Source: a virus
Taxonomy: Duplodnaviria > Heunggongvirae > Uroviricota > Caudoviricetes
Virus record (IMG/VR): IMGVR_UViG_2778261447_000018
Span: 1 to 4,026 of that record
Length of the DNA: 4,026 nucleotides
Direction: 5' to 3' (one strand)
Shown: one piece after another, positions 133 to 2,072 of the stretch
Layout of the letters: every line of letters starts with the position of its first letter
Numbering within the stretch: position 1 is the stretch's first letter
Position numbers and translations under genes: made by a program
Notes under the pieces: generated by a model
Database searches by the model: none
The model's input: the letters and a program-made list of their open reading frames with translations, nothing else
What the model was told of the DNA's origin: nothing

Positions 133-156
133 AAAAAAAGCCGGATTTCTCCGGCC
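133..156 (-). terminator. intrinsic terminator after the decoration-protein gene
   Basis: 6-bp stem GCCGGA / TCCGGC (140-145 and 150-155) with a 4-nt loop. An A7 run at 133-139 on plus gives U7 after the hairpin on the minus transcript. It lies about 75 nt after the stop at 230 and is nearly identical in sequence to the terminator at 2050-2072. Confidence 0.55.
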
Positions 157-229
157 TTGTCTCAGATGGTTTTCAGTATGCGATAGATGTCGCCGTCATC
201 GCCCTGGTTTGTGCCATCGTTCCCCCTGC

Positions 230-565
230 TTATCGGGCCAGCGGCTGAACGGATACGCCGGAACCCGCAAAGGCGGCGCATTTTTTCGCATCGGTGTCGA
301 CGCTCTCAGGCCAGTTAACGGCAGCAATATTAAATATCCCCGTTTTGTAACACTGTGCTGATTTCTGCTTTGACGTGTCCACGGGGTGAGAAGTCAGATA
401 AACAGCTTTGCCAGATTCCTGACCATCCCACGCCTTAAACTCGCCATTGTCTGCCAGCATCAGCGGGGTAAATTCCTGAATAACGCCAGCATCAGCGGCA
501 AAATGTACCAGCGTCGTGGATACCTGCTGGCTGCCTGCAAATAACTCAATGTATGGAGCGTCCAT
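230..565 (-). CDS. head decoration protein, lambda gpD family (111 aa)
   Basis: ORF from track. The translation contains TPLMLADNGEFKAWDG...WPESVDTDAKKCAAFAG, which matches the conserved core of lambda gpD as I recall it (TPLML...AWDG...WPE...AFAG). Size is right for the family (about 110 aa). The ATG at 565-563 follows a GGGGGA Shine-Dalgarno and sits 11 nt after the capsid stop, suggesting coupled translation. Similarity was judged by eye, not searched. Confidence 0.7.
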   Translation of the reverse strand: MDAPYIELFAGSQQVSTTLVHFAADAGVIQEFTPLMLADNGEFKAWDGQESGKAVYLTSHPVDTSKQKSAQCYKTGIFNIAAVNWPESVDTDAKKCAAFAGSGVSVQPLAR

Positions 566-576
566 AGAATCCCCCG

Positions 577-1632
577 TTAAGCAATTTTGACGGTAACAAA
601 TTTGCGAATATCTGCCGGTACCGGCTGCGGTGCGCTGTGCGTCTGCACGTACTCAATCGCCGGATCGCCGTCCTCAATCCAGTTTTTCGGGTAGTACATG
701 TTTTGCGTTGCGCCCGTTCTTACCGCTTCCTGATCCATAATCGCACCATATGCCACCAGCCCTTTATTGTTGGTGTTACCCAGGACCAGCAAATCAGGCT
801 CAAGGAAATATTTTTCGGTGCCGTCGCTGTCAGTGTATTTGCCGGAATAGACGATAAGGGCCAGATCACCAAGATAGCCTTTAAAGCTCACCACTTCGCC
901 CAGGTTTTTACAGGCCAGCTCGGCGGCGGATTCTGATCCACGGGAAAGATCGTAAAGTTCACGGAATTTTTTAAAGCTGCGTAATGTGCGCCATACCTCA
1001 CCGCCCATAATCATGACGTTGGCGGGGCAACCTGCCTGATCAGCATAAAGCTCGATGTCATAGATTGGGTCGTGCATGTCTTTATCCTGCTGGGACCATT
1101 TTTTACCACTGGCCTGCTGTATGATGCAGTTTTCCGGTATTTTCCAGTCGATTTCATAGCGTTCTATGCCTTCGCCCTCAATGATGTTTTTTCCGGTCGT
1201 TACCGCATTCACCGCCAGCCATTCCACGCGCGCCTTAATGGCGTTTATCTGGCGGCGCATGTTGCCAGTAATCAGGCGCATACGGCGGTAAGTTGGATCG
1301 TTAAGCTGTGCCGGATCTTCTCCAGCCATGCGCATGATGGTCTTTGTTGGATCGATTTCGTGCTTTGGCTTCATGTAGCCAGGTTTGATTGTGCTGGTTT
1401 CGTACCCTTTATCGCGCTGGACCTGACTACCCACCATAGGCGAACAGAACGCTGACATCGTAACCTCTTCAATGTCCAGGGTGTCCAGCATGATGTTTTG
1501 GGTGTTGAAGGTCGCCACGTTCGGGAAAAACAGCGTGGTAAACAGAGGGCTGAATTTAAAATCCGCAATATCCCCGCGATTCAGGTACGCGAAAAGCTGG
1601 TTAGTTGTAAGTGCCGTTGCTTTGCCTGTCAT
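577..1632 (-). CDS. major capsid protein, lambda gpE family (351 aa)
   Basis: Longest ORF in the window. Several blocks match lambda gpE as recalled: KPGYMKPKHEIDP, EDPAQLNDPTYRRMRLITGNMRR, IVYSGKY, YPKNWIEDGDPA. Length is 351 aa against 341 for lambda E. The ATG at 1632-1630 follows GGAGGTGA. The plus-strand ORFs inside it are shadow ORFs. Confidence 0.9.
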   Translation of the reverse strand: MTGKATALTTNQLFAYLNRGDIADFKFSPLFTTLFFPNVATFNTQNIMLDTLDIEEVTMSAFCSPMVGSQVQRDKGYETSTIKPGYMKPKHEIDPTKTIMRMAGEDPAQLNDPTYRRMRLITGNMRRQINAIKARVEWLAVNAVTTGKNIIEGEGIERYEIDWKIPENCIIQQASGKKWSQQDKDMHDPIYDIELYADQAGCPANVMIMGGEVWRTLRSFKKFRELYDLSRGSESAAELACKNLGEVVSFKGYLGDLALIVYSGKYTDSDGTEKYFLEPDLLVLGNTNNKGLVAYGAIMDQEAVRTGATQNMYYPKNWIEDGDPAIEYVQTHSAPQPVPADIRKFVTVKIA

Positions 1633-1838
1633 TATTCACCTCCGTGAACCTGATTGATACCCAGCGCCGCACGTAAATAGGTGCGCACCTGCCAGCCTGT
1701 TGACGGCTCAACCATCGCCAGCGGATCAAGTCCTGCCGCAATGCCTGCTTTTACATTCTGCTGGTGGCGTTCCTTGAGCGCCTCCACGATGTCGGGGCTT
1801 ATGTAGACCGTCACCCCGCCTTTTTTCTCTTCAGCCAT
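1632..1838 (-). CDS. small hypothetical protein (68 aa), translationally coupled to the capsid gene
   Basis: ATG at 1838-1836 with a GAGGAA Shine-Dalgarno 9 nt upstream. Its TAA stop overlaps the capsid ATG (TAATG), and the capsid Shine-Dalgarno lies inside its 3' end. The N-terminal pattern (short beta-like VTVYIS, then a helix starting PDIVEALKERHQQ) is compatible with a ribbon-helix-helix or small assembly factor, but that is speculative. No family recognised. Confidence 0.45.
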   Translation of the reverse strand: MAEEKKGGVTVYISPDIVEALKERHQQNVKAGIAAGLDPLAMVEPSTGWQVRTYLRAALGINQVHGGE

Positions 1839-1873
1839 AGTAAGAAATTCCTCTTTGACTTAAAAAATCATAA

Positions 1874-1889
1874 CTGGATGTTCATCCAG
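1874..1889. promoter_or_regulatory. perfect inverted repeat CTGGATG-TT-CATCCAG overlapping the predicted capsid-operon start site; candidate operator
   Basis: Read directly: 7-bp arms with a 2-bp spacer at 1874-1889, immediately downstream of the -10 on the minus strand. This is the position typical of a dimeric regulator's operator. A 2-nt loop makes an RNA hairpin role less likely. Confidence 0.35.
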
Positions 1890-1894
1890 CTCTG

Positions 1895-1922
1895 ATTATA
1901 ATCATGATTGCATTTTGTGCAA
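1895..1922 (-). promoter_or_regulatory. sigma70-like promoter for the 68-aa/capsid/decoration operon
   Basis: On the minus strand: -35 TTGCAC (1922-1917), 16-nt spacer, -10 TATAAT (1900-1895). The predicted start near 1888 gives a leader of about 50 nt before the ATG at 1838. The -10 sits in the palindrome gATTATAATc, so it also reads TATAAT on the plus strand. Confidence 0.4.
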
Positions 1923-2004
1923 TAATGTTGAGTTGTGTTGCAAATTATGAAATGATTATCCCGTTCATGTGTGTCAGTGCACCAAAAAAACCTCATATGC
2001 AAAA

Positions 2005-2043
2005 GCCCGATAAGCCCCCCTGTGACCTTATCGGGCTTTTTTT
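2005..2043. terminator. GC-rich hairpin with flanking T/A runs; bidirectional terminator, stronger on plus
   Basis: 10-bp stem GCCCGATAAG / CTTATCGGGC (2005-2014 and 2027-2036) with a 12-nt loop. It is followed by T7 (2037-2043) on plus and preceded by A4 (2001-2004), which gives U4 on the minus transcript. It would act as a second terminator after the ssb-perC operon and could also end a plus-strand transcript. Confidence 0.5.
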
Positions 2044-2049
2044 AGGCGT

Positions 2050-2072
2050 AAAAAAGCCGGATTGCTCCGGCT
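2050..2072 (-). terminator. intrinsic terminator after the PerC-like gene
   Basis: 7-bp stem AGCCGGA / TCCGGCT with a 4-nt loop (2055-2072), 7 nt after the stop at 2079. An A-run at 2050-2055 on plus gives a U-run after the hairpin on the minus-strand transcript. Confidence 0.55.

Follow-up and report, generated by a model that had tools for sequence, protein, structure and literature searches.

The stretch of DNA analyzed here (the window, 4,026 nucleotides in length, positions 1 to 4,026 of the IMG/VR record IMGVR_UViG_2778261447_000018) is, as judged from its sequence, part of an EcCICFT073-like Gram-negative phage-inducible chromosomal island (PICI) of Escherichia coli. It contains two nearly identical hairpin-forming sequences in the same orientation, one at either side of a cassette of lambda-type capsid genes. 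With an estimated probability of about 75%, these two sequences are paralogous Rho-independent terminators which are specific to the EcCICFT073-like PICIs and the related capsid-forming PICIs (cf-PICIs) and have been reused at the module joints of these islands.

Two copies of one hairpin

The preliminary description of this DNA had reported two near-identical sequences in the same orientation, which were indeed recovered by a repeat search as a direct repeat of 27 nt with 89% identity (134-160 versus 2050-2076). Copy 1 ("T-down," AAAAAAAGCCGGATTTCTCCGGC) extends from 133 to 155 and copy 2 ("T-up," AAAAAAGCCGGATTGCTCCGGC) from 2050 to 2071, and the two are identical at 21 of 22 positions at a distance of 1.9 kb. 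The pattern AAAAAGCCGGATTNCTCCGGC has exactly two matches in the window, while none of 200 dinucleotide-preserving shuffles contained any. All long open reading frames of the window are located on the minus strand, and the consensus of both copies on this strand is GCCGGA-GNAA-UCCGGC-U6/7, both loops being of the GNRA form. The folding energies are -17.4 kcal/mol for copy 1 (z -3.8) and -12.6 kcal/mol for copy 2 (z -2.5), with folded stems of 7-9 bp that are rich in G+C and carry the U-run directly at their 3' side. Each copy shows the features of an intrinsic terminator, namely a G+C-rich stem-loop, a U-run, and a same-strand location just past a stop codon, copy 2 starting 7 nt past that of the gene for the PerC-family regulator. 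A consensus terminator scan flagged copy 2 as terminator-like and missed copy 1, probably because the stem of the latter, as modeled, extends via A-U pairs into the U-run. The statement that both copies are followed by TGT holds for copy 2 (TGTGTG), but only approximately for copy 1, which is followed by CTTGTC. An Rfam search of the window gave only sub-threshold chance matches, neither copy corresponding to a known RNA family, and covariation was uninformative, since the stem is nearly invariant across the relatives and its few variants are uncompensated single mismatches. The hairpins and the features surrounding copy 1 are as follows.

140-155, minus strand: hairpin of terminator copy 1, RNA GCCGGA-GAAA-UCCGGC, with U7 at 133-139 (read from 139 to 133); predicted to end the capsid operon, abuts cosQ
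2056-2071, minus strand: hairpin of terminator copy 2, RNA GCCGGA-GCAA-UCCGGC, with U6 at 2050-2055 (read from 2055 to 2050); predicted to end the replication/regulation operon
2001-2040, bidirectional (A7 ... U4 / T7): T2 hairpin, -24.5 kcal/mol; left edge of the conserved capsid cassette
1872-1891, minus strand: leader hairpin with U-run, -12.1 kcal/mol, z -4.1, between the promoter and the 68-amino-acid (aa) gene; possible attenuator
156-229, minus strand: remnant of a 137-aa gene, of which only the 3' end is kept
52-132, minus strand: lambda-type cos site, 82-88% identical to lambdoid phage DNA between Rz and Nu1
130 to 124, minus strand: cosQ, GGGTCCT, from the alignment with phage cos
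101 to 90, minus strand: cosN with the 12-nt cohesive-end sequence GGGCGTCGACCT; conserved cosN flank to about 68
1 to about 60, minus strand: island-specific cosB, the part of cos differing from phage

As previously described, the two copies bracket a promoter, a 68-aa open reading frame, the capsid gene and the decoration gene, and the interval additionally harbors the T2 and leader hairpins. The sequences of these two hairpins are unrelated to copies 1 and 2, so terminator function alone does not force the likeness between the latter. Since T2 is located only 10 nt beyond copy 2, the capsid operon appears to be insulated by two tandem terminators.

The assignment of copy 1 to the decoration gene had to be abandoned. 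Copy 1 is located 75 nt beyond the stop codon of that gene, and in the closest relatives of the window (L001 and L128) as well as in about 70 other loci, a 137-aa gene annotated as head-tail connector in NZ_CP100500 is present between the two. The window lacks 350 bp containing nearly the entire 137-aa gene, with the joint at a 9-bp repeat (ACGATGGCA, 212-220) that includes the start codon of this gene. In the alignment to L001, positions 1-220 of the window correspond to 9001-9221 and positions 212-4026 to 9571-13385, and 77 relatives break their homology with the window at 210-219. Copy 1 begins 6 nt past the stop codon of the 137-aa gene in L001 and should therefore be regarded as the terminator of this gene, which has been lost from the window by deletion. 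The same spacing as in the deleted window (77-78 nt) is also observed in L148, L152, and L175.

At its other side, copy 1 directly abuts a cos site, a feature missed in the preliminary description. In the direction of transcription, the U-run of copy 1 continues into GCGGGTCCTTTCCGCATGTGGACCCGTTACG-GGGCGTCGACCT-CGCGCGTTTTCGCTATTTATGA, in which the cosQ heptamer precedes a cosN by about 30 nt. Together with the 12-nt cohesive-end sequence of this cosN, the arrangement corresponds by sequence match to a lambda-type cos. The cohesive-end 12-mer aligns to phage cos with one mismatch (phage PhiR5_1 has GGGCGGCGACCT), and the window contains only this one cosN-like site. Two types of cos occur among the islands, and the phage homology of both starts in the U-run, right behind the hairpin. 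A search for the hairpin among 50,697 phage records returned weak partial matches only and no good match, indicating that the terminator did not arrive with the cos segments, but is the island's own. The EcN island, which follows the EcCICFT073 design, contains two hairpin copies with a cos-like site (including a cosQ-like sequence) after each of them. Its second cos, behind the SSB gene, shares 87-91% identity with the cos regions found in Stx-converting phages, and again the homology starts right behind the hairpin. This pair of sites agrees with the two functional cos sites documented for EcCICFT073 (PMC6092414, PMC6739421), the Rpp-proximal one presumably representing cos1. In islands of the EcN type, the Stx-type cos2 is located between the hairpin and T2. 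The homology of the cos regions among the relatives splits at cosB according to the type of the downstream gene, which is either a 180-aa gene matching Phage_Nu1 (E value 3e-23) or, in the lineage of the window, a 144-aa gene with a weak match (E value 0.005).

Distribution of the hairpin and module joints

The hairpin (in the following also called T) recurs at the same places in the relatives, as seen in a capsid-anchored survey of 80 IMG/VR loci plus genome loci. All 82 lambda-type loci contain it between the SSB, PerC, or a 74-aa gene and the capsid operon, 11 of these upstream hairpins deviating by a loop of 5 nt, a single mismatch in the stem or a shorter U-run. Every locus that extends to the end of the capsid operon (73 of 73) has the hairpin there in its GAAA-loop form, with cosQ and cosN behind it. 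The U-runs in the relatives range from T5 to T9. Two copies of T were counted in 52 capsid-anchored loci, three in 19, and one in 15, although the single-copy loci may include some that are cut off by contig ends. When the PerC gene is used as anchor, T is found at most 40 nt behind it in 78 of 78 IMG/VR loci, followed by different material. In 20 loci this is the lambda-type cassette, which in another 23 is accompanied by the 74-aa gene and one additional T copy; 17 loci show the HK97 cf-PICI module, another 15 this module together with the 74-aa gene, and 3 loci a protease-capsid fusion module. All sampled cases of cos2 are also directly preceded by T (L125, L126, L208, L209, and L211).

It had been proposed to look for related elements with a single copy and no capsid cassette, or with different cargo between the copies, and both kinds exist. 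The Rpp-anchored loci L267 and L270 represent an "empty" form, consisting of SSB, PerC-like, and ProQ-like genes followed by T, cos, and Rpp, with T directly before cos and Rpp and without capsid genes. Different cargo is represented by the 74-aa gene between two copies and by the HK97 module behind a single copy in L002. L208 also contains a GCCGGA/UCCGGC stem with a UUUUU loop ahead of its protease-capsid operon (about 9480-9510), suggesting that the stem is reused more widely than the strict motif shows.

Comparison of these islands indicates where their modules join. The homology of the window to the HK97-type island L002 (of the cf-PICI type) stops exactly at 2051, in copy 2; L002 has this one T copy and then a completely different head module, and the right-hand homology boundary against the HK97-type island is the start of the last island gene. 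Relative to L002, L003 contains a 354-bp insert with the 74-aa gene, flanked by 24-bp hairpin repeats. All four combinations of presence or absence of the 74-aa gene with lambda or HK97 modules are seen, and four upstream arrangements are each paired with both downstream types (Rpp or the 144-aa gene). The 74-aa gene with T in L003, and the capsid cassette between T and cos as compared with the plain T-cos arrangement of L267, resemble the moron units of phages, with promoters that are predicted only. The breakpoints of the window against about 90 relatives pile up at 2040-2059 and 2070-2089, on both sides of copy 2, and also where cosN borders on cosB (50-69) and at the deletion of the window itself (210-229), while none was recorded at 130-160 around copy 1. 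Copy 2 is clearly the main mosaic joint of the islands, whereas copy 1 is not an exchange boundary. As judged from this pattern, a block-like unit runs from T2 through cosN, flanked by copy 2 at the left and by T-cosQ-cosN at the right.

The motif is not a host-wide terminator, as would have been apparent from copies at many unrelated terminators of the host. Of 5426 complete E. coli genomes, 1249 (23%) match a 33-mer around copy 2, the median being 2 and the maximum 10 places, and 7 of 7 sampled places are located in PICI-like islands, directly after SSB or PerC. Among the newly fetched IMG/VR loci with exact matches, 85 of 111 carry PICI marker genes, and every multi-copy IMG/VR locus is a PICI.

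Proposed arrangement and alternatives

In the arrangement favored here, copy 2 would stop the replication/regulation operon (primase to SSB and PerC), while T2, a strong predicted promoter and the leader hairpin would start the capsid operon, which consists of the 68-aa gene, the gpE-like and gpD-like genes and, in the relatives, the 137-aa gene. Copy 1 would then stop the capsid operon just before the lambda-type cos and an Rpp-type gene beyond the window. Across the family, the hairpin may represent a fixed punctuation mark with variable material attached behind it, namely two kinds of phage-derived cos, the 74-aa gene, the capsid cassette, the HK97 head module or the protease-capsid fusion module. 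The added transcription units, i.e., the capsid operon and the 74-aa gene, would end with another copy of the hairpin. If the island is built from such terminator-delimited units, the direct repeat around the capsid cassette appears as a by-product. The data are consistent with placement of the capsid cassette between an ancestral T and cos, because empty and filled forms both exist.

Several observations weigh against this reading. About 30 Rpp-anchored loci of a divergent subfamily contain the capsid/decoration pair and cos but no T before cos, and about 22 of these show no T copy anywhere; the cassette does therefore occur without the flanking repeat, an outcome which the preliminary description had named as contradicting its proposal. 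The T pair is thus lineage-specific and not required. Furthermore, exact single copies are present in 26 non-PICI viral contigs, and exact single copies of a 21-mer were listed at least 120 times in the species genome set, from many unrelated phyla and without bearing on the Enterobacteriaceae, so that an independent origin of similar hairpins from such a simple motif is possible in principle. Breakpoints in the hairpin windows amount to 315 versus 66 expected, but these counts do not represent independent events, and the expectation is a uniform one only, while intergenic DNA generally attracts breakpoints. Finally, the copies are assigned as terminators from sequence and folding, actual termination being presumed, as is the direction of change (insertion versus loss).

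The divergent subfamily differs in other respects as well, its capsid protein being 54% identical and the 68-aa and 137-aa genes being absent. Three of its members (L247, L255, and L231) contain a decoration gene and an extra helix-turn-helix (HTH) gene, with a cos that lacks a preceding hairpin, and several islands of this subfamily adjoin a prophage capsid gene fragment and are probably helper-embedded.

The preliminary description had offered either simple reuse of a terminator or a footprint of cassette exchange as explanations. Both copies are indeed terminator-shaped and copy 2 is a mosaic breakpoint, but copy 1 marks no boundary and no deletion product was found among 5426 genomes. An active recombination joint may still be considered as a possible, if somewhat unlikely, alternative. 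In that case, the 22-27 bp of identity (plus cosQ/cosN on the right) would serve as a crossover substrate for swapping or inserting modules during helper-phage growth, e.g., by phage single-strand-annealing recombinases, and the repeat would genuinely record cassette exchange as well as mediate it. Rad52-like phage recombinases reportedly tolerate short or diverged homology, and conserved "linker" sequences are said to occur at module borders of lambdoid phages. The breakpoints flanking copy 2 on both sides, the 74-aa cassette with its 24-bp flanking repeats in two different backbones and the occurrence of all combinations of upstream and downstream types would fit such a process, and the 350-bp deletion of the window at a 9-bp repeat shows that short-repeat events occur here. 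However, a chimeric PerC-T-cos1 query, representing the product of a repeat-by-repeat deletion, was covered to at least 80% by none of the 5426 genomes, and the partial matches turned out to be PerC-T with the other cos type, in islands with the protease-capsid fusion module. The loop sequences are tied to their positions, being always GAAA after the 137-aa gene and always GCAA after the 74-aa gene, with GAAA, GCAA, or GTAA after PerC and GCAA, GAAAA, or GAAG after SSB, which argues against ongoing conversion or frequent exchange between the copies. Loci with a GAAA loop behind PerC that lack the 74-aa gene were considered as deletion derivatives, but their PerC genes group with those of the GTAA-loop loci, which points to a point mutation in the loop. 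In addition, copy 1 is not a breakpoint, and random joining followed by selection would likewise leave breakpoints at operon ends. No sign of recent or active recombination between the two copies was found; the repeat may plausibly have served as a crossover site.

A more far-reaching version, which we regard as speculative and rather doubtful, views the hairpin as a family-specific "landing pad" (22-27 bp plus cosQ/cosN) for the capture of helper cos sites, the uptake of small cargo, and the swapping of head modules by short-homology recombination during helper growth. If true, this would explain why some PICIs hold two different cos sites, each directly behind a T copy; the reason for two cos sites in PICIs was left open in the paper on Rpp (PMC6739421).

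A role of the hairpin in packaging, for example in shielding cos from transcription or in aiding cosQ-dependent packaging termination, is quite improbable. Under such a role, its likeness at two places would reflect a duplicated T-cos unit, as in cos1 and cos2 of EcCICFT073. T does directly precede every cos in the T-bearing family (73 of 73 for cos1, all sampled cases for cos2), its U-run merges into the T-rich bases before cosQ, and both EcN copies are followed by a cosQ-like sequence. Yet the helper-type phages contain cos without the hairpin, the divergent PICI subfamily has cos1 without T, and neither copy 2 of the window nor the T of the HK97-type islands is followed by a cos.

An independent origin of the two hairpins by convergence or chance, without shared history, is already disfavored and regarded as very improbable. 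The motif is short and simple and occurs as exact single copies in many unrelated bacteria and viruses, but two copies that are identical at 21 of 22 positions within 1.9 kb were not reproduced by any of the 200 shuffles, and about 200 related loci share the same 6-bp stem at each of the three or four positions, whereas T2 and the leader hairpin are unrelated to it. In E. coli, the motif is moreover confined to a minority of genomes, where it is multi-copy.

Finally, the repeats can hardly be regarded as the termini or recognition sequences of mobile cassettes, such as integron attC-like sites, repetitive extragenic palindromes (REP) or the mosaic elements composed of them (BIME), or transposon ends. 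Hairpin-forming repeats do flank different kinds of cargo here, and the stem is presumably similar to the outer one in a certain type of E. coli REP, but the repeats are direct instead of inverted, no target duplication is seen apart from the repeat as such, and no integron integrase, RAYT, or transposase was found in the examined islands. An attC site is a long imperfect inverted repeat of 57-141 bp with a cognate integron integrase nearby, whereas the hairpin comprises 16 nt, far below this length, and a chromosomal tyrosine integrase is the only integrase in the islands. REP elements are present in hundreds of copies in every E. coli genome, as compared to a median of 2 and a maximum of 10 places in 1249 of 5426 genomes for the motif.

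Further features of the island and comparison with known systems

The remaining features of the window are listed below.

230-565, minus strand: decoration protein gene (lambda gpD family), Pfam HDPD, E value 2e-17
577-1632, minus strand: major capsid protein gene (lambda gpE family), Pfam Phage_cap_E, E value 2.5e-50
1632-1838, minus strand: 68-aa gene, the first of the capsid operon; kept in relatives, no Pfam match
1895-1922, minus strand (read from 1922 to 1895): predicted sigma-70 promoter, TTGCAC-16 nt-TATAAT, from the sequence; kept across island subtypes
2079-2351, minus strand: PerC-family regulator gene, Pfam PerC, E value 6e-39; final gene of the operon upstream, with the annotation PerC also in relatives
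2362-2772, minus strand: SSB gene, from Pfam
3060-3300, downstream of the primase gene: GGTAGA(C/T)A-type repeats, direct as well as inverted, forming an array detected by a repeat search; expected to be the iteron-type replication origin

The window shares 96.7% identity with the L001 island, which is located between thiM and rcnR in E. coli LH50-c, and 1692 of 5426 complete E. coli genomes match parts of it. The genes of the L001 island comprise an integrase, an AlpA-like HTH regulator, an Icd-like gene, DUF4222, primase, SSB, PerC, and the capsid pair, followed downstream by the 137-aa "head-tail connector" gene, the 144-aa gene, and a 93-aa gene. The gene inventory of a PICI is present, with the 3' end of the primase gene and the iterons in the window and an integrase, HTH regulator, primase, and SSB in L001. 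A recent capture of the capsid cassette was ruled out, the best phage capsid homologue being only 47% identical.

The sequence from T2 to the 68-aa gene is common to every lambda-type relative, and the leader hairpin is kept in their alignment. The predicted promoter was not picked up by the consensus scan and overlaps with a palindrome (ATTGCACAAAATGCAAT, 1907-1923). The succession of predicted promoter, palindrome, and hairpin with U-run (1891 to 1872) is reminiscent of a late promoter under regulation or attenuation, and all lambda-type relatives share this layout.

Two of the surveyed islands show unusual arrangements. In L126 (NZ_CP086338, 6982-19693), the island lies inside the gene for the large terminase subunit of a prophage and contains SSB, T, a Stx-type cos, and a protease-capsid fusion gene, a layout matching the published "helper-embedded PICI" configuration (PMC10111431). 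In L210 (NZ_CP032892, 933-8897), PerC-T and a first gene of the 68-aa type are followed by hypothetical genes of 843, 686, and 918 aa replacing the head genes, a cargo which might represent a defense system.

The window's island resembles EcCICFT073 in the order of primase, origin, SSB, gpE-like capsid, gpD-like decoration gene, cos, and Nu1-like Rpp and in a cos with lambda-like cosQ/cosN and its own cosB (PMC6092414, PMC6739421), but differs from it by the presence of PerC and the absence of a second (Stx-phage-type) cos and of the 137-aa gene. For EcCICFT073, the capsid gene c1499, the decoration gene c1500, and cos1 and cos2 (PMC6092414) as well as Rpp (PMC6739421) have been described, and it is the only one of these elements for which helper-phage induction and transfer have been shown experimentally (PMC6092414). 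The cf-PICIs (bioRxiv 10.1101/2022.09.08.507074) share the same left half, from the integrase to primase-SSB-PerC, and the same terminator (L002 and L003), but carry a full HK97-type head and terminase module after T instead of the gpE/gpD pair and cos, with either one T copy or two with the 74-aa gene.

No new mechanism is proposed here, since the element class, the capsid genes, and the cos sites have already been published. What is new is a small detail, the conserved terminator at the joints and before the cos sites of the sampled T-bearing islands; PMC6092414 and PMC6739421, in which the word "terminator" occurs 0 times, do not mention a conserved terminator either before the cos sites or at the module joint. 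This detail suggests an anatomical rule, by which the replication half closes with one conserved terminator and the variable parts follow behind it, each cos of the sampled T-bearing islands being located directly behind T. Such a rule may be useful for annotating operon ends, cos positions, and module borders of these islands and for the design of synthetic PICIs, and it defines a candidate crossover sequence by which module exchange becomes testable.

With respect to lambda cos, positions 52-132 of the window align including GGGTCCT and, with the one mismatch, the cohesive-end 12-mer, whereas the phage sites lack a hairpin terminator upstream of cosQ and differ in cosB, as published for EcCICFT073. 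A wider parallel concerns the phages as well as their satellites. Lambdoid phages reportedly contain "morons" and linker sequences at module boundaries. Like these, the islands show promoter-gene-terminator units between genes that are adjacent in relatives, and short conserved sequences at mosaic joints. They differ in that the satellite reuses the same terminator at successive joints and that its right-hand copy is fused to cos.

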